Shown here in pieces: positions 20,988 to 53,902 of a stretch of 53,902 nt of DNA. Numbering within the stretch: the first letter of the stretch is position 1; each line of letters starts with the position of its first letter. Where the stretch lies: the IMG/VR virus record IMGVR_UViG_3300033463_000182, positions 1 through 53,902 of that record; one strand, 5' to 3'. The stretch comes from a virus. The position numbers and the translations under genes are program-made. Below the pieces are notes generated by a model. The model had not been told where the DNA came from. It made no database searches and saw nothing but the letters and a program-made list of their open reading frames with translations.

Positions 20988-22568
20988 TTATCCCGCCTTT
21001 CTGCAAAGCTCCGGCAGATTCGCCCGCACAAGCGCCGTCGGGATCGGCGGGCATACCGCGTTCCCGCAGCGCGCCACCTGTTCGGATTTCGGATAGGGCT
21101 TGCCGTCCGCGTCCACGTCGATGATATAATCCTTCGGGAAGCCCTGGGCGTTGAAAAGCTCCCTCGGCGTCAGCATCCGCAGGCCAATATCGACGATCTG
21201 GCAATCCTGCCCCTTCACGGTCACAAGGCCCATTCTGTCCTTTGCTGTCACCGTCGGGGCTGGTTTGTCGCATGGCACGGCGTTTTCGCCGTTCCCGTAA
21301 TACTTCACCAGGAACGCGCAGACCTCCCCGAAATGGTTTGTTTGTGCCGTCATGGTGTTCAGCGGTTTATCCACCGGCTGCCCGTCGCAATGGTTGTTGA
21401 ATTGCGTCACGGCCACGGCGCACACCGCGTTATGGTCAATGGCCGTCACCGTCGGCAGGGGCTTGTCCGCCCCGCTTGCCACGTTATCCCCGCCGTAATA
21501 CTTGCTGATGAAGGTCGATACCAGCCCGTAGCGGTTGCTGGCGTCCACGGTCATGAGGGGATCGTCCACTTCCTGCCCGCGTGCCCCGCCGCCTTGTTCG
21601 TCATGGTATTGGATCAGGCTCGGCGCAATCTGTTCTTTGCCGTCCGTATTCACGATGTACGGGCGCGGATTTTCAATAACAAACTTCTGGATGCCCCGCG
21701 CGATCCTGCGCATGGTCGCGTCCGCCAGTGGCCGCACCGCGCGGATGTGGTATTCGTCCCATATTTCTTCCGACGTGGCAAAGATGGACGGGCAGGGCAG
21801 GGAGAAATCCAGCACGTCCGCAACCGGCTTCCACGGCTTTTTCAGTCCGGCGTTTACCTCTATGCTTTCCGGGTCGCCGTGGGTTGGTTTCGGCCAGGTG
21901 ATCGGCTTCCCGTCGCAGCGTGCGATCAGGAAAAACCGTTTGCGGATGGTCGGCGCGCCATAGTCGCAGGCGCGCAGCTCCCGGTGTTCGACGTGATAGC
22001 CCAGCCCCAGCGCCAGCTTGAGCGCTTCCTGCGTGTTCGGCTTCAAGAAGTCGCAGGCTTCCCGGTATGCGGGATGATCCAGCGATATGCCGGTTGTCAG
22101 CATGGAGATAAAGCCCTGGAAGGTTTCGCCCGCCCGCGCGGGGTCGGGAATGGTCTTGCCGTCCTTCCGCTTCATCAGCGGCCCCCAGGTCTGTATTTCC
22201 TCCACGTTCTCCATCATAATCACGCGGGGACGCACCGTCATAGCCCAGCGCAGGATCACCCAGGAAAGGCCCCGAATGTGCTTGCTGACCGGCTTTCCGC
22301 CCTTCGCTTTGGAAAAGTGCTTGCAATCCGGCGAAAACCACGCCAGACCGACGGGTTTTCCCTCGCAGGCTTCCACGGGATCGACCATCCAAATATCTTC
22401 CGTGTAGTGTTTGCTGTCCGGGTGGTTGGCCCGGTGCATGGCGATGGCCGCCGGATCGTGATTGATTGCCACGTCCACACTCCGGCCCATCGCTATTTCA
22501 ATGCCGGTGCTGGCCCCGCCGCCTCCGGCGAAATTATCAACCACGATTTCCCTTGTGCCGTTCATCAT
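20988..22568 (-). CDS. DNA (cytosine-5)-methyltransferase, orphan
   Basis: Motifs DNFAGGGGAS (I), FSPDCKHFS (IV), MMENVEE (VI). Start set at ATG 22566-22568 (AAGGAGG upstream, ATGA overlap with the upstream ORF) rather than the track start at 22790. Confidence 0.85.
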   Translation of the reverse strand: MMNGTREIVVDNFAGGGGASTGIEIAMGRSVDVAINHDPAAIAMHRANHPDSKHYTEDIWMVDPVEACEGKPVGLAWFSPDCKHFSKAKGGKPVSKHIRGLSWVILRWAMTVRPRVIMMENVEEIQTWGPLMKRKDGKTIPDPARAGETFQGFISMLTTGISLDHPAYREACDFLKPNTQEALKLALGLGYHVEHRELRACDYGAPTIRKRFFLIARCDGKPITWPKPTHGDPESIEVNAGLKKPWKPVADVLDFSLPCPSIFATSEEIWDEYHIRAVRPLADATMRRIARGIQKFVIENPRPYIVNTDGKEQIAPSLIQYHDEQGGGARGQEVDDPLMTVDASNRYGLVSTFISKYYGGDNVASGADKPLPTVTAIDHNAVCAVAVTQFNNHCDGQPVDKPLNTMTAQTNHFGEVCAFLVKYYGNGENAVPCDKPAPTVTAKDRMGLVTVKGQDCQIVDIGLRMLTPRELFNAQGFPKDYIIDVDADGKPYPKSEQVARCGNAVCPPIPTALVRANLPELCRKAG

Positions 22569-22777
22569 TGTGCCTCCTTGAGCTTCGCCAAATCGAATAA
22601 GGTTATCTGTCCTTTCGGCGGCTTTTCCCGCTGCCTTGTCGGTTCCTGCCGGTATGGGTACAGATTGCATCCCTTGAGCCTGCAATTCTGTACCTCCTTC
22701 CGGCTGCCGCCGCTGCACTCCAAACAATGCTTGTGGATTGCTACCAGCAATTCGTCGGGTGTTGGCTTCTTGCTCAT
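22565..22777 (-). CDS. Small zinc-finger protein
   Basis: 70 aa, HCLECSGGSRKEVQNCRLKGCNLYPYR; coupled to the methyltransferase start. Confidence 0.5.
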   Translation of the reverse strand: MSKKPTPDELLVAIHKHCLECSGGSRKEVQNCRLKGCNLYPYRQEPTRQREKPPKGQITLFDLAKLKEAQ

Positions 22778-23058
22778 AGGTCATATTCACCAGATTGCAG
22801 ATACTCGATTTCCCGCAAAAGGTCGCTGACCATTTCCTGATAAACGCGCTCTCTGGTATGCACTTTGCCCCACAAGGGCCGGTCTTTCCCGTTGCGCTGT
22901 TCCCAGGTCTTTACGCACTTCGGGCAGTAGAACGCGCTTCCGAAGCTGTCCCAGCCCGCCTTGACGATTTCCTCTGCCGGTTCGATCCGGCTGAATCTGT
23001 CATACTTGAATTTCCTGCTTTTGTGTCCGCAGCAGGAGCACATGATCTGCAAATACAT
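22774..23058 (-). CDS. Hypothetical zinc-ribbon protein
   Basis: Start refined to MYLQIMCSCCGH... behind GGAGGCCAACACC; second CPKC pair. Confidence 0.45.
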   Translation of the reverse strand: MYLQIMCSCCGHKSRKFKYDRFSRIEPAEEIVKAGWDSFGSAFYCPKCVKTWEQRNGKDRPLWGKVHTRERVYQEMVSDLLREIEYLQSGEYDL

Positions 23059-29817: not shown

Positions 29818-30117
29818 TTATTTGGACATCGCTTTGAGAAGATCAGCCAGCGGGTTATTATCTTCTCGGATGTACTTTTTACCCTCGCGCATGGCATGGG
29901 CAATCAGGGACGAAGCCATCAGCGCGCCGCTTCCGGCGATGTGTGCGGCGAGATCAATGTTGGATATTGCGTGCAGGCAAACCGTACCGCCTTTTCCTTG
30001 ATTGGCGATGATGGCAAAGCCGTCACACTCTACCCCCCCCCGCAGCGTTTCGTCGATTTCGTTGCCCTTCTCGTCCCCGACGATCTCAACCTTGATGCGA
30101 TAGATCGGATTTTCCAT
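29818..30117 (-). CDS. Hypothetical protein containing a G9 homopolymer
   Basis: 99 aa, AGGAGGCCAAAACT-ATG start. G9 (C9 on +, 30033-30041) encodes RGG. Flanked by tRNA-like elements. Confidence 0.5.
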   Translation of the reverse strand: MENPIYRIKVEIVGDEKGNEIDETLRGGVECDGFAIIANQGKGGTVCLHAISNIDLAAHIAGSGALMASSLIAHAMREGKKYIREDNNPLADLLKAMSK

Positions 30118-35079: not shown

Positions 35080-35950
35080 AATTATCCGCGCGCGCGTGCG
35101 CGAGGGGCCTTTTCTGGCCTGCCCAGGTGAATGAAATTCATAAAAAAAATAAAAAAATTAGCCAAATGGTGGGCTCCCAGCGCCCGCGTAGGAGAAAAAT
35201 CACGCGCGCAGTACCTACACGCGCAAGCGGGCGGGCGCGCACACGGGCGGGCGGGCGCGAGCGCGCGACAGGCGCGTGTGCGGGGGCGCGAGGGCGCGCG
35301 CGTGAGGGCGCGCGTAGGGGCGCGCGTGAGGGCGCGGGGGCGTGAGGCGCGGACGCGGACGCGCAAGGGCGCAGGGGCGCGGGCGGATGCGGGCAGGCGT
35401 GGCGCGTTGCGCGGTAAAAGCAACCCCGGAGGGGTTGCATCCAGGGCGCGCGGGGCCGCGTGATGGCGCGGGCCGCCGGACGCGGGCGGCCAGGGGACGC
35501 AACGCGGGAACGCGGGCGGACGGGCCGAAACATAAAACGCGCGGCGCGGGGCGGACGGGGCCGGGACGGGGCAGGCCGTTCCCGCGTCCAGGATCGCCGC
35601 CGGACGGATCGCCCGCCGGGACGGTTTACAATTCCGGCCAGCGTCCAGGCAGCAGCCAGCTCCCCGCACGCGCGCCCGCGCAGGCCGCCGGGGCGACGTG
35701 TCCAGGGATCGCCGCCGGGGACGTTGCCAGGGATGCAGGCAGCAGCCCCCGCGCGCGTGGAGGCGTCCAGGGGCCGCCGGGGGCCGGATGCCAGGACGCC
35801 GCCGGGGGCCTATAACCGTTTGCGCCATTCGGGGCGGATCGTTCACCGTCGGGGCCGTCCATGTTTCCGCCGGACGGATCGCCGCCCGCGTCCAGGCGGG
35901 GCGGGCTGGATGCGCTCACGCATACACGCGGGAACATAAAACGCGCGTGC
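35080..35950. repeat. Extreme-GC non-coding repeat block
   Basis: 104 of 120 nt are G+C in 35221-35340 (counted). Contains (CG)n, GGGC repeats, about 12-bp tandem repeats and five GYGTCCAGG iterons. All six frames give Arg/Pro/Ala/Gly junk. Confidence 0.85.
35129..35160. other. AT-only island with an 11-nt palindrome inside the GC block
   Basis: ATGAAATTCAT (35131-35141) followed by A8-T-A7-TTA. Confidence 0.8.
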
Positions 35951-42683: not shown

Positions 42684-42850
42684 TGCCCGCGCGCTCTGTT
42701 CCGGGGTTATACATAATCGGGGGTTGTGTTAAACTCGCCCCCGCGCCGTTCCTTCCTATTATATGCCGGAAATTTAACATGGTTTTTCGGGGCTGTGTTT
42801 TACCATGCCTTAATATGACAAACAGACGCCACCACACCCTGCAAATAGGC

Positions 42851-42884
42851 ATAAAAATAACGCCCCCGGATCGCTCCAGGGGCA
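42851..42884 (-). terminator. Intrinsic terminator (convergent)
   Basis: Minus strand CCCCTGGA-GCGA-TCCGGGGG, then GCGTTATTTTTAT. Confidence 0.6.
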
Positions 42885-42888
42885 TTGT

Positions 42889-43089
42889 TTATTTCCGGCC
42901 TTGCCGTTCTCGCTTCTGTTTGCGTTTCAGCGCCCTTTCCAGTCCCGGCCCCGCTGCCTTGAGCTTGCCGATCCTGGCCCTTTCGTGCCGCCGTTCCTCG
43001 CACCACGCGGCATAACGCGCGTACTTCTCACATTCTCCGTGACAGGTTGGCGTCCTGTCCGGGCAGTTCTTCACGCATGGATTGTCCAC
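42889..43089 (-). CDS. Small Cys-rich basic protein
   Basis: 66 aa, CVKNCPDRTPTCHGEC. Confidence 0.45.
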   Translation of the reverse strand: MDNPCVKNCPDRTPTCHGECEKYARYAAWCEERRHERARIGKLKAAGPGLERALKRKQKRERQGRK

Positions 43090-43102
43090 TTTCTTTTCCC
43101 TT

Positions 43103-43869
43103 TCATAAATCGAATAGACTGATCTGGTTCATTTCCGCGTCCAGCCGTTCCTTTGCGGCCCTATAATACTCCGGGTCGATCTCAAAGCCCACAAATTCCA
43201 GCCCCGCGCGGCGGCAGGCTATCAGGCTGCTTGCGCTCCCGCAATGCGTGTCCAGTATCTTGTCCCCTTCCTTGGCGTACCGGGACAGGAGCCATTGATA
43301 CAGCTTGACCGGCTTCTGTGTCGGGTGGAATCGCTTTTCCCTTGCCGATCCCTGCGGCATACACTCAAACAGCTTCGCGTTGTCGTTGAAGCTCGTCCAG
43401 GCGTATTCGCACATCGCCATGGTGAAATTCTCGCTGATGGTCAGTTTCCGCCACACGATAAAACACCGCGTCGGCGGCAGGCGAAAGTAATTCCCGCCCC
43501 AAATGATTTGATTTTTGCTGACGCGGGCCAGCTCCTTGAAATAATCCTCGCCGGGGGCCACGTCCCAATGCTTGATGTTTGCGCTGCTAAAGAGGCCCCC
43601 TGGCTTGTATTTCTGAAAGTACCCTCCGCCCGTCCGGGCCGCCTTGATCGTCGTTTGCAAAGTGATACTGCCGGAATCGTCCGCCGAAGCGTCCGTTTTT
43701 ATGTTTCTCCCAATCAGTACCCCCCCCCCGCCAGGTTTCCGGCGTCTGCATCCTCGGCCCGTCCGCCGCCTCCGTAGGGCGGATCGACGATTGCCAGGTC
43801 AAAATACTTGTCGGGAAATTCCTTCATCCCCTCCATGCAATCCATGTTGTAGAATCCGGGATCAAGCAT
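43103..43869 (-). pseudogene. N6-adenine/N4-cytosine DNA methyltransferase interrupted by a frameshift at a G10 tract (phase-variable, recoded or a homopolymer error)
   Basis: The ATG at 43867-43869 gives MLDPGFYNMDCMEGMKEFPDKYFDLAIVDPPYGGG...LAGGGY-stop. The frame reached by one extra G continues ...NQIIWGGNYF...FHPTQKPVKLYQWLL...DTHCGSASS... to 43103. Confidence 0.75.
43720..43729 (-). repeat. G10 homopolymer (C10 on the + strand)
   Basis: Counted directly: c at 43720 plus nine c at 43721-43729. Confidence 0.9.
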
Positions 43870-44476
43870 TTCCCTTCACCCGCTTTCCGGCCAGCATATT
43901 GAATTTCATAAGGCTTTCGTCGATGTTCTCCTGGATCACGCCGATATATACCAGCGTTTCCCGCTGGTAGCTGTGGCAGAGAATCCTTTGCAGGCTCACC
44001 ACGTCGCCGGTCATTTTGTAGTAATGATACCCAAACGTCTTGCGCAGCGTATGGCATCCGATCCTGTCCTCTATGCCCGCTTCCTTGGCAATCTCGTTGA
44101 TGATCTGATAGCACCGCTGCCGCGTAATGGGCCGGTATTTGTGCGTCGCCGCGTCCTTTTGGCGGCTCTGGAAGATATACTCGTCCGACTTTCTTCCCGC
44201 CAGCAGGCGGTTGATTTCCCGCCGCGCCTGGGGGTTTATCAGGATGCGGGCCTCCTTCCCGGTTTTCTTGGCCTGTATCTGCGCATAGTCCTTCCCCTTG
44301 AGGTCTGCCACCTTGAAGCGCCGAAAGTCGCTCACGCGCAGGCTGGTATTAAATCCCACGAGCAAGATCAATTCCCAGCATACTTCCCCGGTCTTTCGGT
44401 TCTTATCGTGATCCCGCGCAATCTCATAGCACTTTTGCAGCACGTCCAGATCGCGGATGGGCTGTACCACCTTCAT
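43862..44476 (-). CDS. Small tyrosine recombinase (catalytic domain only)
   Basis: 204 aa. LRVSD (Arg I), HTLRKTF (His-x-x-Arg), HSYQRETLVYIG (His...Tyr). Confidence 0.75.
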   Translation of the reverse strand: MKVVQPIRDLDVLQKCYEIARDHDKNRKTGEVCWELILLVGFNTSLRVSDFRRFKVADLKGKDYAQIQAKKTGKEARILINPQARREINRLLAGRKSDEYIFQSRQKDAATHKYRPITRQRCYQIINEIAKEAGIEDRIGCHTLRKTFGYHYYKMTGDVVSLQRILCHSYQRETLVYIGVIQENIDESLMKFNMLAGKRVKGNA

Positions 44477-44511
44477 TGTGTTTTCACTCCCTCCAAATAT
44501 GACAAATAAAA

Positions 44512-44542
44512 ACGGTCAAAAAAGGAAAGCCCCGGCGGGGGC
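44512..44542 (-). terminator. Intrinsic terminator after the lysis cassette
   Basis: Minus strand GCCCC-cgcc-GGGGC followed by TTTCCTTTTTT. Confidence 0.6.
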
Positions 44543-44568
44543 CGTTCCCGTCGGGGCCGTTGGCTGTA

Positions 44569-44898
44569 TCAGTTGTTCGTGTCGGGCGGTTCGCCTTCCG
44601 CCGCCTTGCGGATGCGCTGCCACAAATCCCAAATGAAGGACGGCCCGCGCCCCAGCGCAACGCCCGTCAGCGCGTAGAAGATATAGTGGACGAATACGGG
44701 CGCTTCCGCCAGAAACTGCTCGTCGGCAAAATACGCCAGCATATTCAGCTTGCAGGAAACCGCCAGCACCACGCCCAGCACGATGCTCACGATTTCCGCC
44801 ACGCTCATTTTTTCGCCGTCCTTGCTCCAGATCGGCTTGATCGCCGTCACGACGGCTTCAATGAACAGCGCGACCAGAAGAATGTTGATGTACTGCAT
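44569..44898 (-). CDS. Holin-like membrane protein
   Basis: 109 aa with about 3 hydrophobic helices and a charged C-terminus; lies in the lysis cassette. Confidence 0.55.
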   Translation of the reverse strand: MQYINILLVALFIEAVVTAIKPIWSKDGEKMSVAEIVSIVLGVVLAVSCKLNMLAYFADEQFLAEAPVFVHYIFYALTGVALGRGPSFIWDLWQRIRKAAEGEPPDTNN

Positions 44899-46943: not shown

Positions 46944-47036
46944 TTACCTCCCATTGGCATAGATGAGCGCCGCAAGGATCATGCCAAAAAGGGCCGATGC
47001 GGGAACAATCCAAACCAGGTGCCATGCAGAAATCAT
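46944..47036 (-). CDS. 30-aa single-TM peptide (not in the ORF track)
   Basis: GGAGGTG RBS. The ATG overlaps the RT stop (ATGA). MISAWHLVWIVPASALFGMILAALIYANGR. Confidence 0.35.
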   Translation of the reverse strand: MISAWHLVWIVPASALFGMILAALIYANGR

Positions 47037-48400
47037 AAATAAATCACCTCCGCGCTTTCCAGCCAGTCGCCATAGTGCATCCGTATGTGTTCTTCAAGGC
47101 TTCCGCCCCATTGAGGATCTTTTGGGTCGATCCCGCGCACCGAAAGCACGCGGATGTCAAAGTCCATTCGTCCCGTCAGGTCGTCGTAGGCCGGAACAGC
47201 CTCGCCCGGTGTCAGCCAAATATCCACAAGGCCGTCCTCCGCCTCGACGATTCTATAAAAATGCCGCCTGTTCCCCGGCGGCTGATCGCTCGCGTTATTC
47301 ATGTTTTCGCACCTTTGCAGTACAAAGTGTTCCTCGATCCAGCGCAGCATATTGTAGCCGTTACAATGCTTGCACATGCCGATGTAGCAGATCACGCTTT
47401 CCATCGCCGCGTCATAGCTGATCGCCCCGTAGGCGAAAGCGCTCATAACGTGTTTCAGCGCCCGCTTGATATGCCGCGTTGTTTTCTTCCTCATGCGGAT
47501 GCCGTGTGGCGTCAGCAGATACCCCACAAACTCCACCGGGGCCGTCGCTTTCTGGATGCGGCTTTTGGGGCTGATGTCAAGCGCCAGCTCGTCCCGCAGG
47601 AAAGCGCTCACGGTGGCGAATACCCGCCGCGCTTCTTCCTTGCCTTTCACAAGGATGCAGAAATCGTCCATGTAGCGCACATAGAAATGGAGCCGCAGGA
47701 CGTGTTTGCAGTATTTGTCCAGCTTGTCCAGGAACAGGTTGGCCGTTTCCTGGCTGGTCAGGTTGCCGATGGGCATACCTACATCGTACAGCCGCAGGGC
47801 GCGCGGGCAATCGTCCGGCCTCATTCCCGGCGGCAGGCCAAAGGGCACGTCCGGGTTGTTGATGATAACGCCCATGAGCCAGCGATACCATTGATCGTCG
47901 CTGGTTTCGTCGTAGCTCTGCAACACCTTCCCGTGATCCACGCGGTAAAAGTATTTGCTGATGTCGCCCTTTATCAGATACCAGTCGTCCGCGTCCGGCT
48001 TCCGGCTGATAAGCTGCTGCCAGCTTTGCAGGCACTCCGCCGCCGCCAGCGTGCCCTTGTCGCGCCTGCATCCGTAGCTGTGTTCGATATAGCGCTTGTC
48101 AAGATAGGGGTTGATCTGCCGGTAGATGGCCCATTGCACCACGCGATCCCGGAAGCCCAGCGCCATGACCAGGCGCGGCTTCGGATAGCGTACATAAAAT
48201 TCTCTGTACGGGCCGACCTTATAGGTCATTTCACGTAATTCCTTCTGTATCTGGAGCAGATTTTCGCCCAGGTTGAAGGTGAAATCCAAAACCTCGTTGC
48301 GATACCGCTTGCTCTTTGCGGCGTCACGGTATGCGCCCATCAGGTTTTCAAAGTCGCAGATGCGGTCTTTCAGATTGTGCAGCCCTTCCAAAATGTTCAC
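47033..48400 (-). CDS. DGR reverse transcriptase with an extra C-terminal domain of roughly 100 aa
   Basis: IGNLTSQ (DGR-type motif 4) and YVRYMDD (motif 5); lies downstream of TR. Confidence 0.9.
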   Translation of the reverse strand: MNILEGLHNLKDRICDFENLMGAYRDAAKSKRYRNEVLDFTFNLGENLLQIQKELREMTYKVGPYREFYVRYPKPRLVMALGFRDRVVQWAIYRQINPYLDKRYIEHSYGCRRDKGTLAAAECLQSWQQLISRKPDADDWYLIKGDISKYFYRVDHGKVLQSYDETSDDQWYRWLMGVIINNPDVPFGLPPGMRPDDCPRALRLYDVGMPIGNLTSQETANLFLDKLDKYCKHVLRLHFYVRYMDDFCILVKGKEEARRVFATVSAFLRDELALDISPKSRIQKATAPVEFVGYLLTPHGIRMRKKTTRHIKRALKHVMSAFAYGAISYDAAMESVICYIGMCKHCNGYNMLRWIEEHFVLQRCENMNNASDQPPGNRRHFYRIVEAEDGLVDIWLTPGEAVPAYDDLTGRMDFDIRVLSVRGIDPKDPQWGGSLEEHIRMHYGDWLESAEVIYL

Positions 48401-48449
48401 CCCGCCCTGCGTGGGCCGCGCGTGATGTTTCCATGCGGCTTTGACTGTA

Positions 48450-48473
48450 ATACCCTAAAAGGCTTTAGGGTAT
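48450..48473 (-). other. Perfect 10-bp hairpin in the TR-RT spacer
   Basis: ataccctaaa-aggc-tttagggtat. Confidence 0.7.
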
Positions 48474-48664
48474 GCTGCTGACAGCCTCGGCCTTTCGTCC
48501 TCCCGGACGCTTCGCGGCGATTCCCGCGCCGCCTTTTCCCCCGGAGCGTTCTTGCCGGAGCAGCACGGGATTTTTGTTTAGGCGGTTTTCACCGCCACGG
48601 AAACGCACCCCTCCCATCAGAAGGATGGCCGCTGATTCGTGATCTCGCGGCGCGTGATGTATGC

Positions 48665-48785
48665 TGGGAGCGCGGGCGGCAGCCATAGTTGTTGTTCGCA
48701 TTGCCGCGCTCGTTGTTGGAGTTGACATACCCCAAGCCCGCGTTGGAGCCGTTGTTGTAGTTGCCGCCGCGACGCGGGAAGCGCT
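48665..48785 (-). repeat. DGR template repeat (TR)
   Basis: 121 nt, collinear with VR at an offset of 710 nt. All 18-19 mismatches are at TR adenines (T on the + strand). Sense translation: RGGNYNNGSNAGLGYVNSNNERGNANNNYGCRPRS. Confidence 0.9.
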
Positions 48786-48816
48786 AACGAACGCATGGCG
48801 ATCCAGGCCGTCCAAT

Positions 48817-49239
48817 TCACGGCACGTTCCCTTTATAGTCGCTGCTTTTCCGGCCAGATACGCTATTGATCCAGCCGCCGATTAAGGCCCCGATTTCCGC
48901 GATCTTTTCAGACCACACGCCGTAACTTTGATCGGTGAGCAGACGCCTTTCCTGTCCGTTCTTTGCGGTGAATACGGTCTTGTTGGCCTGCTGGATCAGC
49001 ACGTCCAATACGGCCTTGCTGGTGTCCAGGTCGCCCAGCGTGCTTTTGTTCATGTACTTGAGCCGCGCTTTCGTCGCCAGCCGGAGCATGGTGTACATTT
49101 CCTGCATGATGTCCACGCCCAGGCTCTTTTGATGGAAGTACGGCCATCTTTGCACAATGGGCCGCGCCCAGCAGATCATGTCGTCGATCTTCTGGCAGCA
49201 CGGCCCCGGATTCTTTGCGTCGTACCTAAATTCTGGCAT
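48817..49239 (-). CDS. avd: Accessory variability determinant (Avd)
   Basis: 140 aa helical basic protein. ...IAEIGALIGGWINSV matches the Avd C-terminal helix pattern. Lies between the target gene and TR. Confidence 0.8.
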   Translation of the reverse strand: MPEFRYDAKNPGPCCQKIDDMICWARPIVQRWPYFHQKSLGVDIMQEMYTMLRLATKARLKYMNKSTLGDLDTSKAVLDVLIQQANKTVFTAKNGQERRLLTDQSYGVWSEKIAEIGALIGGWINSVSGRKSSDYKGNVP

Positions 49240-49264
49240 ACCGTTTCACCTTATCAGAACATCA

Positions 49265-49302
49265 TCACGCGCGCGTGACCGATTCTATTCACGCGCGCGT
49301 GA
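49265..49302. promoter_or_regulatory. Two identical 14-bp palindromes TCACGCGCGCGTGA upstream of avd
   Basis: 49265-49278 and 49289-49302, 24 bp centre to centre. Confidence 0.6.
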
Positions 49303-49314
49303 TGGAGAGGGACG

Positions 49315-49339
49315 GGGGCGCGCCCTACCGGGCGGCCCC
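49315..49339 (-). other. GC hairpin downstream of VR (DGR target-recognition element candidate)
   Basis: 10 bp with one bulge and a 4-nt loop (tacc on the + strand), 35 nt beyond the VR end. Confidence 0.6.
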
Positions 49340-49370
49340 ATCAGGGATTCAGTTTTCAGTCGTCAGGGGT

Positions 49371-50585
49371 TCAGAGGGAGCGCGGGCGGCAGCCAAAGGG
49401 GTAGACCGCACCGCCGCGCTCGTCGCTGGAGTAGACAAACCCCAAGCCCGCGGCGGAGCCGCTGATGAAGTAGCCGCCGCGACGCGGGAAGCGCTCGCCC
49501 GCCGTGAAGTTGACGTAGTAATAGCCGGGGGTGTCGTCGTTTGCGTCGGTCTTGATAAGGCCCAGCTCCTTGACGATGCTCGGCACATATGGAAGGTTCG
49601 TGCTGTTCACGGCAACCGTGCTGAAGCTCTCGCCCTTGCTGCCAACGGTCAGGTCGTCGCATTGCGTGTCCAGGGTAATATGCCCGTTCAGCCAGTTCCA
49701 ATGCAGCGTGCCGGTGGTGCCGGGGGCAACCAGCGTGTAGCCGTCGTCGCCCGCGTTGGGCAGGATCGCTTTCCACGCGGCGGAAGAAGCGGACAGGTCG
49801 GCGTCCGGGTCGGCGGCGTTGTTGTTCTCCAGGATTTGCAGCTCGCAATCGACGATCCGATAGCCGTACTGCTGTTCCAAGGAAGAACCGATGATGTCCG
49901 CCAGCAGCGCGGGATCGCTGCCAAGATACCAGTCCAGCGGGCCGCTGCCGTTCAGCGTCCGATAGCCGGTCTGGTGCGCGGCGTCCGGCGTGCCGTCGTT
50001 GCTGATGCCGCCCACATACTTGCCGCGCTCCCAATAGGTCGGGGCGATGTCAGGCCGCAGCTCCGCCGCGCTGGTGTGCGCTTGCAGGGCCTTGTAGATA
50101 TAGCCGTTGTAGGCGCGCTCGTTGTTCACCGAAATGCTCTTGCCGGTTTCCCATGCCGTCGCGTCCTGGTGCGCCTGCCCCCACGCGGTATTGCCGTGCG
50201 GCTTCCAGCCCATCTTCTGCGCCAGCAGCTTGATAAAGCCGTAGTCCGCACAGGTCATGCCGGTAATACCGCTGCCCGCCAGCTTCATGCGGGACAGGCA
50301 TTGATCCGCGCCCAGGGAGCGAATCGGGTTGATGTTCGGCAGGGACAGGATCGCGCCGCCGGAAACGCCGTTGTCGCCGCCCTTGTACTTGCCCAGCAGA
50401 ATATAATCCTGCTCCACGCCGTTGATGATAAAGGCGGGGTGGGTGTGGTTCGGCAGGCCGGAAACCAGGTCAGAGGATTTCATCTTCGGGAATTTCACGA
50501 AGATACCGGCCACGTTGCCGTTGGCGTCGTACTTCACGATGTTGCCGTACTTCTTCGCCAGAAATTCAAGCGGGCTGTTATTCAT
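49371..50585 (-). CDS. DGR target protein, putative receptor-binding tail-fibre protein with a C-type-lectin-fold VR
   Basis: 404 aa, last gene of the fibre cluster; the VR occupies the C-terminal 40 codons. Confidence 0.8.
   Translation of the reverse strand: MNNSPLEFLAKKYGNIVKYDANGNVAGIFVKFPKMKSSDLVSGLPNHTHPAFIINGVEQDYILLGKYKGGDNGVSGGAILSLPNINPIRSLGADQCLSRMKLAGSGITGMTCADYGFIKLLAQKMGWKPHGNTAWGQAHQDATAWETGKSISVNNERAYNGYIYKALQAHTSAAELRPDIAPTYWERGKYVGGISNDGTPDAAHQTGYRTLNGSGPLDWYLGSDPALLADIIGSSLEQQYGYRIVDCELQILENNNAADPDADLSASSAAWKAILPNAGDDGYTLVAPGTTGTLHWNWLNGHITLDTQCDDLTVGSKGESFSTVAVNSTNLPYVPSIVKELGLIKTDANDDTPGYYYVNFTAGERFPRRGGYFISGSAAGLGFVYSSDERGGAVYPFGCRPRSL
49375..49495 (-). repeat. DGR variable repeat (VR), 3' end of the target gene
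   Basis: See TR. Encodes RGGYFISGSAAGLGFVYSSDERGGAVYPFGCRPRSL-stop. The invariant GC-rich 3' end (49376-49394) is IMH-like. Confidence 0.9.
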
Positions 50586-53255: not shown

Positions 53256-53902
53256 TTAGGAAGAAATCGCCGTCAGCGTAATGGTGCCCTTGCACCGTTC
53301 GTTGGCGTTGATCTCCGTGTATTCCACCGTCCCGCTGTCGAAATTGCTCCCCGTGTCCCAAATAACGCGCGTCGCGCCTGCCTGGTAGATGGCCGCCATC
53401 AGCCGGTCAGGGTTAAAAGCCCGCCCGATGGTGTTGTCCTGCCATTCCTGGTAGTCGCTCACCGCCGCCGCAATCGCCGCGCTGGTGGCGCTGCTGTTGT
53501 CGCTGGCGTATTTCACGTTCAGCGTATAGGGTACGTTGGTCGCCTGATAAACGCTTACGTTGTCCGTCAGCGGGCGCACGTCCTCCGCAGAAAGCGCGTC
53601 CAGCACGCTTTGAAGCAGCGCCGCAGCGCCCGTCTGTGTGGATAGGATCAGATAGATTGCCACGTTGCCCGCACTGGCGTTGATGGCCCTGGCGTCCAGG
53701 ATCACGCTGCTTACAGCCTTTGCCGCCGCCTCGTACTGCCTTGCCGGGCCGGTGGAAACGCTCGCAAGGCCGTATTCCCGGATGCGCTCGCGGTAGGTTT
53801 CGTCGTCCTCCGCCTCGTTTCCGCCCGTGGCGTCCGTCGCCACAATGATGCTGTTCACGCCCGCGTTGGTAATGGCAAGGCCCATCTGTGTGCCTGTCAG
53901 CA
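53256..53902 (-). CDS. Baseplate J-like protein, C-terminal part (continues from 1-581 through the circular junction)
   Basis: GLAITNAGVNSIIVATDATGGNEAEDDETYRERIRE... is typical of the gpJ family; the ORF runs off the window end. Confidence 0.8.
   Translation of the reverse strand, partial: LTGTQMGLAITNAGVNSIIVATDATGGNEAEDDETYRERIREYGLASVSTGPARQYEAAAKAVSSVILDARAINASAGNVAIYLILSTQTGAAALLQSVLDALSAEDVRPLTDNVSVYQATNVPYTLNVKYASDNSSATSAAIAAAVSDYQEWQDNTIGRAFNPDRLMAAIYQAGATRVIWDTGSNFDSGTVEYTEINANERCKGTITLTAISS
53776..53902. repeat. Terminal overlap copy 2 (identical to 1-127)
   Basis: Verbatim identity read directly. Confidence 0.95.

Follow-up and report, generated by a model that had tools for sequence, protein, structure and literature searches.

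Switching of bacterial methyltransferases by poly-G or poly-C tracts is classical, and the phase-variable enzymes described so comprise the Type III mod phasevarions and the Type II and IIG methyltransferases of Helicobacter, Campylobacter, Neisseria and Haemophilus. Here we describe a run of ten G residues (G10) that splits a DNA methyltransferase gene in the virus record IMGVR_UViG_3300033463_000182 of IMG/VR, the whole 53,902-nucleotide (nt) stretch of which is referred to as the window. We regard the run as very probably a slipped-strand contingency tract. As in the bacterial systems, a G tract inside the open reading frame (ORF) would flip the frame ON and OFF, OFF alleles are under selection, and an interruption would lock the tract. 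Unlike in those systems, the gene codes for a small orphan beta-class, Type II-like phage enzyme that has no partner restriction gene, the tract lies in the loop after motif IV, and the non-ON frames are not equivalent. We do not class the locus as a phasevarion.

Among phages, a poly-G tract has been noted in the methylase (Bpm) of Bordetella phage BPP-1 (Liu et al. 2004, as cited in PMC12633550), and a preprint on T2 and T4 mentions it in passing. Bpm is likewise a phage-encoded, DPPY-bearing beta-class adenine methylase with a G8 run, and BPP-1 carries a diversity-generating retroelement (DGR), as the window does. However, Bpm shares 23% identity with the window enzyme, and its G8 is found near motif I (about codon 195) and not in the linker that follows DPPY. 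In the literature searched, no family-wide pattern or allele series was reported for the Bpm tract, and our searches for a frameshifted or poly-G phage methyltransferase returned only this passing mention. Poly-G tracts were also described in receptor-binding proteins of Campylobacter Fletchervirus (Sorensen et al. 2021), and a recent preprint describes homopolymer contingency loci in T2 and T4 (bioRxiv 10.1101/2025.10.21.683753). Both systems have hypermutable homopolymers inside ORFs, which yield reversible frameshift subpopulations and bet-hedging. Those loci are host-range or anti-defence genes of cultured phages with measured rates, whereas the window locus is a methyltransferase seen in metagenomes only, with a trait that extends across dozens of divergent phages and prophages.

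An initial annotation of the window had placed the G10 run at 43720-43729, within a DPPY-bearing ORF that starts at the ATG 43867-43869, and these coordinates were confirmed. The features of the gene are as follows.

43720-43729, minus strand: poly-G tract G10 (SSR1), inside the methyltransferase ORF, after DPPY
43714-43869, minus strand: N-terminal ORF in frame 0, 51 codons plus TGA (43714-43716), with ATG at 43867-43869
43774-43785, minus strand: catalytic motif IV, DPPY, at residue 29, invariant in a 60-sequence alignment
43103-43719, minus strand: frame +2 segment, reached by G8 or G11, an alternative linker and then the rest of the enzyme, with stop at 43103-43105
43562-43570, minus strand: HWD, frame +2
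43310-43330, minus strand: FHPTQKP, frame +2
43226-43252, minus strand: motif I, DTHCGSASS, frame +2, at about residue 206

With G10, the N-terminal ORF gives a product of 51 amino acids (aa), MLDPG...DPPYGGGGRAEDADAGNLAGGGY-stop (full frame reading MLDPGFYNMDCMEGMKEFPDKYFDLAIVDPPYGGGGRAEDADAGNLAGGGY), where the stop falls two codons past the run. On 4 more contigs, from other samples, an ORF with the identical 51-aa product was called. The remainder of the enzyme (NQIIWGGNYF, FHPTQKP, DTHCGSASS) is indeed open when the run is G11 (255 aa) or G8 (254 aa), as first annotated, and a -1 ribosomal slip is an arithmetically equivalent route. Tract length therefore sets the predicted product: 254/255 aa with G8/G11, 51 aa with G10/G7 and 93/94 aa with G9/G12. 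ORFs matching these frame states were called in natural contigs. In the window, gene callers report the catalytic part as a 185-aa ORF from a TTG at 43660. The restored protein matches the Pfam family N6_N4_Mtase (PF01555) with 58.5 bits against a cut-off of 26.7 and also a PHROG DNA methyltransferase; its sequence relatives in PDB are CcrM, DpnA, M.MboIIA and M.PvuII. Motif IV (DPPY) lies ahead of motif I (DTHCGSASS), which is the order of beta-class N6-adenine/N4-cytosine DNA methyltransferases. The target is probably N6-adenine, judging from DPPY (rather than SPPY) and from source annotations. No cognate restriction endonuclease gene was found beside the methyltransferase, next to which lie a tyrosine recombinase gene and small ORFs that match no family, and so we treated it as an orphan phage methyltransferase.

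At least one G10 appeared in 32 of 100 dinucleotide shuffles of the window, and hence a lone G10 in a sequence of this kind is not beyond chance; its position and recurrence are. In order to compare alleles, we compiled 25 near-identical loci that share 97-99% identity with the window and stem from independent sequencing runs and assemblies (n=26 with the window). The loci were fetched via the protein cluster around the C-terminal ORF (products of 51, 185, 215, 216, 254 and 255 aa) and the corresponding contigs; an exact-pattern scan of IMG/VR for the tract flanks gave zero matches. The tract alleles were G7 (1), G8 (3), G9 (11), G10 (9), G6AG4 (1) and G12 (1), so that G9 is the commonest allele of the window clade, at 11/26. 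The gene is intact in the G8 alleles and in the G6AG4 allele, with 254/255-aa versions in other samples (P0128, P0132, P0133). G6AG4, an interrupted tract, is carried by a 255-aa allele and is the expected locked-ON form. In the gene alignment (about 770 nt, 26 copies), gap columns are confined to the tract, which is the sole indel site of the gene, while four 5-nt homopolymers are invariant. Within one project, the G10 locus L019 has 0 mismatches to the G9 loci L005, L006 and L007 over 893-1161 nt, and over 5000 nt the window (G10) and L010 (G9) are separated by 8 mismatches and a single gap, which is the run itself. On identical backgrounds, the public run SRR16606028 gave G10 where SRR16606035/36/39 gave G9, and ERZ27234664 gave G8 where ERZ27234662/65 gave G9. 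Tract length changes faster than substitutions accumulate.

The allele series bears directly on the option, raised in the initial annotation, that G10 is an assembly or sequencing error and that the true run is G11 or G8 in an intact gene. Homopolymers are error-prone, and one G10 is not improbable in the window. However, independent assemblies recover G10 from no fewer than 8 other samples, G9 from 11 and G8 from 3, the alleles span the assemblers MEGAHIT, SPAdes and Logan, the other homopolymers of the gene do not vary, and the window assembly is Illumina-style and closed, its ends overlapping by 127 nt. We consider such an error highly improbable and this option effectively excluded. Two contigs of metagenome-assembled genomes (MAGs) stop inside the tract: L163 (LVAM01000012.1, Firm_07; ...CTGGCGGGGGG) and L165 (JAZRXJ010000126.1; ...GCGGGGGGGGGGGGAAGGGGGG). 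This suggests assembler behaviour at a homopolymer that is heterogeneous in length or poorly covered.

The pattern is not confined to the window clade. Relatives were taken from scans of viral, genome and metagenome collections, their N-terminal (DPPY) and C-terminal domains were placed by tblastn, and the family statistics refer to 184 distinct linkers outside the window clade. G runs of at least 7 on the coding strand are found in 87 of the 184. The linkers hold 107 such runs in 26.1 kb (4.1 per kb) compared to 67 G/C runs in 866 kb of flanks (0.077 per kb), a 53-fold enrichment (Poisson p about 1e-141). Of the linkers with a repeat, 52/96 have the two halves of the gene out of frame, versus 6/88 of those without (Fisher p = 1e-12); the in-frame share among repeat-bearing relatives (44/96) is biased upward, since tblastn ranking favours contiguous matches. 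(GA)n/(AG)n repeats of 7-13 units replace or accompany poly-G in L052, L065, L078, L117, L120, L192, L207, L233 and L246, and L041 has C12 at the same linker position. Different types of repeat have been recruited to one linker site.

The split relatives also bear on whether the gene is a simple pseudogene decaying after a frameshift or, as a variant of that idea, a two-piece enzyme made from separately initiated halves. The window allele does encode a 51-aa N-terminal fragment, and a separate 185-aa ORF is called from a TTG. Against decay, the full-length C-domain ORF is kept in 65 of 69 split loci, and the median pairwise ratio of nonsynonymous to synonymous substitution rates (dN/dS) of the C domain among split alleles is 0.076 (238 pairs), with values of about 0.02-0.1 even at synonymous divergence (dS) of 0.7-2.5. 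The split alleles are thus maintained genes under purifying selection, and intact alleles of the same phage exist. Either form of this explanation has a very small chance of being right, and the simple-pseudogene option of the initial annotation is effectively excluded.

The repeat lies in an ORF, varies among near-identical genomes and switches the frame, and purifying selection acts despite OFF alleles, which together are the marks of a contingency locus. With a high degree of confidence, we take the G10 to be a slipped-strand contingency tract in a functional phage orphan beta-class methyltransferase, of which the window carries a null allele. The phase-variable option of the initial annotation is therefore supported by the allele series without any other indel, by the family-wide enrichment of repeats and by the selection on split alleles. 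In the proposed mechanism, replication slippage would alter the tract by single Gs, and its length would set which of the three frames ribosomes carry beyond the N-terminal domain. A single contiguous enzyme of 254/255 aa would result from G8 or G11, the null state from G10 or G7, and from G9 or G12 a frame that holds a conserved RFGG motif described below. The phage population would then be a mix of methylating and non-methylating genomes. Methylation shields phage DNA from classical restriction-modification and exposes it to methyl-directed restriction. Since it both protects and exposes, a mixed population would hedge across hosts, between those with restriction that is blocked by the methyl mark and those attacking methylated DNA.

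Several points weigh against this reading. The allele counts are no unbiased frequency spectrum, as the loci were retrieved by particular ORF products, and the pairs without a single-nucleotide difference span only about 1 kb. Tract lengths were read from assembled contigs, from which we infer heterogeneity within populations, reversibility and the rate of switching; the activity of the enzyme, its target, the benefit of methylation and the ecological rationale are similarly deduced. In addition, one clade (L070, L096, L108 and L113) has an interrupted tract, ATCCGGGGCGGCGGGTAGCC, about 60 nt past DPPY, which is identical in three sequences (L070/L096, L108 and L113) at dS 0.7-0.9. Its N-frame stop comes right after GGG (GGG TAG C), its parts lie in frames (0,+1,+2), and the dN/dS of its catalytic domain is 0.02-0.05. 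A gene that is split by a presumably stable interrupted tract is unexplained by pure DNA switching. This arrangement may be a second +1 shift site that replaces the DNA switch.

The same clade, being split under selection and in need of some route other than DNA, favours recoding at the run itself, in which the DNA would be stably G10 and ribosomal -1/+1 slippage on G_GGG_GGG, or RNA-polymerase slippage, would give low-level compensation. On a run of Gs, any tRNA-Gly can re-pair perfectly whatever the frame, and G10 is one step from both productive frames. There is also a precedent in the G7 run of herpes simplex thymidine kinase, a 'savior indel' with low-level compensatory frameshifting (review PMC5009743). 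In both cases a G-run indel inactivates a viral enzyme in DNA and slippage in decoding can still yield some product, but the herpes indel is a drug-selected mutation in a eukaryotic virus and not a conserved family-wide architecture as seen here. However, the DNA tract is unstable, with six alleles among near-identical genomes that include contiguous ORFs, the contexts of this first junction are unconserved across relatives, and no conserved stimulator was seen, an Rfam scan of 42800-44600 having found nothing. We therefore consider recoding at the run unlikely as the main explanation, although run-level slippage may add leakiness to every switch state. A programmed -1 slip on the G run, which the initial annotation had offered, is accordingly the less likely form of recoding; if recoding occurs, a cassette further downstream is the likelier site.

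In order to describe that cassette, the linker has to be considered first. An AlphaFold model of the relative P0003 (60-sequence alignment) has predicted local distance difference test (pLDDT) values of 80-97 in the core and below 50 for residues 26-98 after DPPY. According to this model, a long loop without structural constraint, just past motif IV, holds the tract and would be tolerant of change. Among intact relatives, one or the other of two frames of the same DNA serves as linker. The linker features of the window are as follows.

43587-43719, minus strand: frame +1 segment, entered with G9 or G12, TDWEKHKNGRFGGRFRQYHF...ARGPL-stop
43665-43691, minus strand: RFGG.F..Y motif, within the frame +1 segment
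43607-43636, minus strand: RTGGGYFQKY, second conserved linker motif, in frame +2, which is the frame of the catalytic domain

The third frame (G9/G12) of the window reads TDWEKHKNG-RFGGRFRQY-HF... and the initial annotation missed its conserved motif. The '(A/T)DWE..K.G-RFGG.F..Y' segment directly 3' of the tract is conserved family-wide, with RTGG.W..KY further downstream. In many lineages, the window clade included, RFGG is offset from the catalytic domain by +1 with no intervening repeat. In two large lineage groups RFGG and RTGG lie in frames offset by +1 and both keep their invariant residues, which persist under saturated synonymous change: the RFGG codons vary among CGC/AGA/CGT/AGG, TTC/TTT and GGC/GGA/GGT. 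The pooled ratio of nonsynonymous to synonymous differences (pN/pS) is 0.27 for RFGG and 0.38 for RTGG in their own frames versus 1.2-1.5 in other frames, about 1.5 in the case of RFGG, a contrast that is inflated because loci were chosen by the presence of the motif. Nevertheless, an unselected 27-nt motif would be lost at a synonymous divergence of 0.7, and the RFGG frame is therefore selected despite the ascertainment. Of the ON/OFF logic first proposed, the switch stands and the plain OFF state for G9/G12 does not, as these alleles join the N-terminal domain to a conserved motif whose frame ends in a cassette similar to the frameshift site of prfB.

The prfB +1 frameshift site consists of AGGGGG, a UAU spacer, CUU UGA and then C (PMC13245932). 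The corresponding elements of the window and its relatives, with a Shine-Dalgarno (SD)-like element first, are as follows.

43586-43601, minus strand: prfB-like cassette in the RFGG frame, AGGGGG (SD-like) CCT (spacer) CTT (shift codon) TAG C
43587-43592, minus strand: CTT TAG of the cassette, with the stop TAG at 43587-43589
L055/L107: AGGGGG TAT CTT TGA C (AGGGGGTATCTTTGAC), 16/16 with the E. coli prfB site
L023 clade: AGGGGG TAT CTT TGA G
L117: AGGGGG TAT CTT TAA C
L257: CGGGGC TAT CTT TAG C
L106, L038, L027 clade and L070 clade: TAT/CTG CCC TAG/TAA

CTT and CCC are classic +1 shift codons. In the window sequence a shift-prone codon precedes the stop, the SD-like element is 3 nt upstream and a C follows the stop, and the +1 frame past the cassette holds the catalytic domain. 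For a G9 allele, shifting by +1 at CTT_T is predicted to give a 254-aa protein, ...IQARGPL|SSANIKHWDV.... The spacing of the window cassette, AGGGGG-CCU-CUU-UAG-C, is identical to that of prfB, and among relatives the 16-nt site of E. coli is present exactly or in versions with CCC and a stop. It differs from prfB in that it overlaps a second coding frame and would be used in one state of an upstream DNA switch only, with the frameshifting itself putative. The stop is UAG in the window, which is specific to release factor 1 (RF1), and UAG, UAA or UGA in relatives, so that the logic of autoregulation by release factor 2 (RF2) was not found and the likeness to prfB would be one of mechanism, not of regulation. 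No frameshift cassette in a DNA methyltransferase came up in full-text literature searches.

Over both strands of the window the strict cassette has a single match; the relatives' flanks (912 kb) have none and the linkers (36.6 kb) have 26. In 10 of the 15 clades in which the catalytic domain is +1 of RFGG without a second repeat, the RFGG frame ends with CTT or CCC and then a stop, and these 10 have a G-rich SD-like element upstream and mostly also a TAT spacer and a C after the stop. Two further clades have AGGGGG-CGN-CTT-CGR. AGGGGG is kept at synonymous positions in at least 6 clades. Within one clade the same site is CTT TAG in L157 and CCC TAG in L070, L108 and L113, which replaces F by P in the overlapping frame. 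Two clades have the cassette between RFGG and RTGG and the others 4-10 nt before the catalytic domain, and in every case it terminates the RFGG frame. As a negative control, in P0003/L256 all parts are in frame; the homologous PGEIFD is coded by CCC GGC GAG ATC TTC GAC, with neither SD-like element nor stop at the homologous codons. Among 37 intact proteins with a GGIF-type junction, RFGG is in frame only in P0003.

Two simpler accounts of the cassette were considered and dropped. CTT-TAG could be a mere shadow of the codons for G-G-[IL]-F-[SDE], but the CTT/CCC swap and the shared synonymous choices speak against it, as do the shifted position of the cassette in two clades and its absence in L256. 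The SD-like element could serve re-initiation and give a two-piece enzyme, but no in-frame ATG, GTG or TTG is present at initiation distance, and an element 3 nt from CTT is too close for initiation.

These results allow an extension of the contingency switch, not a strict rival to it, in which DNA slippage is joined by a putative programmed +1 ribosomal frameshift to make three routes. G9 or G12 would fuse the N-terminal domain to TDWEKHKNG-RFGGRFRQY, and the frame would run to AGGGGG-CCU-CUU-UAG-C, where inefficient termination at the stop, together with the SD-like element 3 nt upstream, would let tRNA-Leu slip from CUU to UUU. The +1 route would yield a 254-aa isoform with a different 43-aa loop, and G8 or G11 the direct isoform with the RTGG loop. 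The extension is consistent with the conservation of RFGG and RTGG out of frame with each other, with the CTT/CCC-stop cassettes in 10/15 clades and their swap within a clade, with a cassette position that varies yet always terminates the RFGG frame, with its absence in the all-in-frame P0003/L256, with its concentration in linkers, and with G9 being the commonest allele of the window clade. On the other hand, the frameshifting is deduced from sequence alone, and the selection of loci by motif inflates the pN/pS contrast behind it. The cassette clades share ancestry and are not phylogenetically independent, and three to five clades have no clean cassette (L054, L115 and L216; L041 and L233 lack the stop). 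The cassette overlaps codons of the direct isoform, G-G-[ILV]-[FP]-[SDEN], so that its conservation could be partly at the protein level, and its varied stops make the RF2 logic inapplicable. Moreover, the +1 route of window-type lineages would translate the RTGG region as a shadow, yet RTGG is conserved in its own frame, which means that both isoforms must be under selection and is less parsimonious. No slippery site that would allow a single path through both motifs was found between RFGG...YH and RTGG in window-type lineages, where the spacer varies in length and sequence, so a two-isoform model is needed, which is a weakness of that model. Weighing these points, we put the three-route extension forward tentatively, at somewhat less than even chances.

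A mirror image of the +1 cassette may be present in another group of relatives (L024, L034, L042, L052, L065, L082, L084, L119, L122, L125 and L128). In this L024 type the ORF is contiguous through RFGG, and RTGGTWAAKYGKK is conserved in the +1 frame with a pN/pS of 0.12 versus 1.34 in the ORF frame. The +1-frame motif ends at an A7 phased A_AAA_AAA, before HWD, and a -1 shift or an extra A there would re-enter the catalytic frame. Across three clades the counts of states are 15 for the direct route, 19 for the RFGG route and 12 for null, with sampling that is biased by locus retrieval. It is conceivable, if on balance doubtful, that the tract selects between two isoforms and null, and that the linker is 'frame-convergent', with slippage coupled to ribosomal frameshifting and the A_AAA_AAA mirror included. 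The core, a contingency locus, is well supported, and its coupling to a prfB-like signal is a hypothesis drawn from the sequences.

The window itself is a complete circular assembly of about 53.8 kb with identical ends (1-127 = 53776-53902) and a G+C content of 58%. It encodes a tail sheath, tape measure, major head protein, protease, portal and large terminase, and hence a tailed, myovirus-like phage. Two further elements were located as follows.

43862-44476, minus strand: tyrosine recombinase gene, 204 aa, PF00589, phrog_216 integrase
47033-50585, minus strand: DGR, with reverse transcriptase at 47033-48400 (phrog_1423) and repeats at 48666-48785 and 49376-49495

The stop of the recombinase gene overlaps the methyltransferase start by 8 nt (ATGCTTGA), an overlap already reported in the initial annotation that proved real and that recurs in relatives. 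The DGR template repeat is 120 nt long and adjoins the reverse transcriptase, the variable repeat is at the 3' end of a 404-aa ORF (49371-50585), and 18/18 mismatches between the two fall at adenines of the template copy. A second methyltransferase of 600 aa (phrog_116) is encoded at 20988-22790 on the minus strand; no repeat was noticed in it, which would leave the G10 gene as the single switchable one of at least two methyltransferases in the window. A MAG contig of 46 kb is from a 'Clostridiales bacterium Firm_07' bin, has 99.8% identity over 3.1 kb and ends within the G run. More distant relatives sit in MAGs of Clostridia, Oscillospiraceae, Lachnospiraceae and Ruminococcus, and the host of the phage is probably among the Clostridia.

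Other runs of the window were also recorded. A second long G run, G9 at 30033-30041 on the minus strand, is in frame (...LRGGVE...) in a 99-aa ORF (29818-30117) without family match, and one relative in its cluster has an extra Gly (RGGGV, i.e. G12); the protein cluster could not contain out-of-frame variants. This G9 may be another contingency tract. At 35142-35157, an A8 and an A7 run stand one base apart and are the longest A/T homopolymers of the window.

In practical terms, annotation pipelines split such genes or discard them as pseudogenes, and assemblies break at the tract. Contingency loci of phages have been recognised recently and in few cultured systems (Campylobacter phages, T2/T4), and here the same principle appears to govern a methyltransferase across dozens of divergent phages and prophages of gut and rumen anaerobes. 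If the cassette works, it would be a use of the prfB-type +1 signal outside prfB that is undescribed as far as the literature was searched, and a rare case of frame control at the DNA level and at the translation level wired in series. A frame-convergent linker, if that reading is true, could serve to adjust the dose of phage DNA methylation or even its specificity. The implied hedging between methylated and unmethylated phage DNA would be relevant to restriction-modification, to methyl-directed restriction and to host range.

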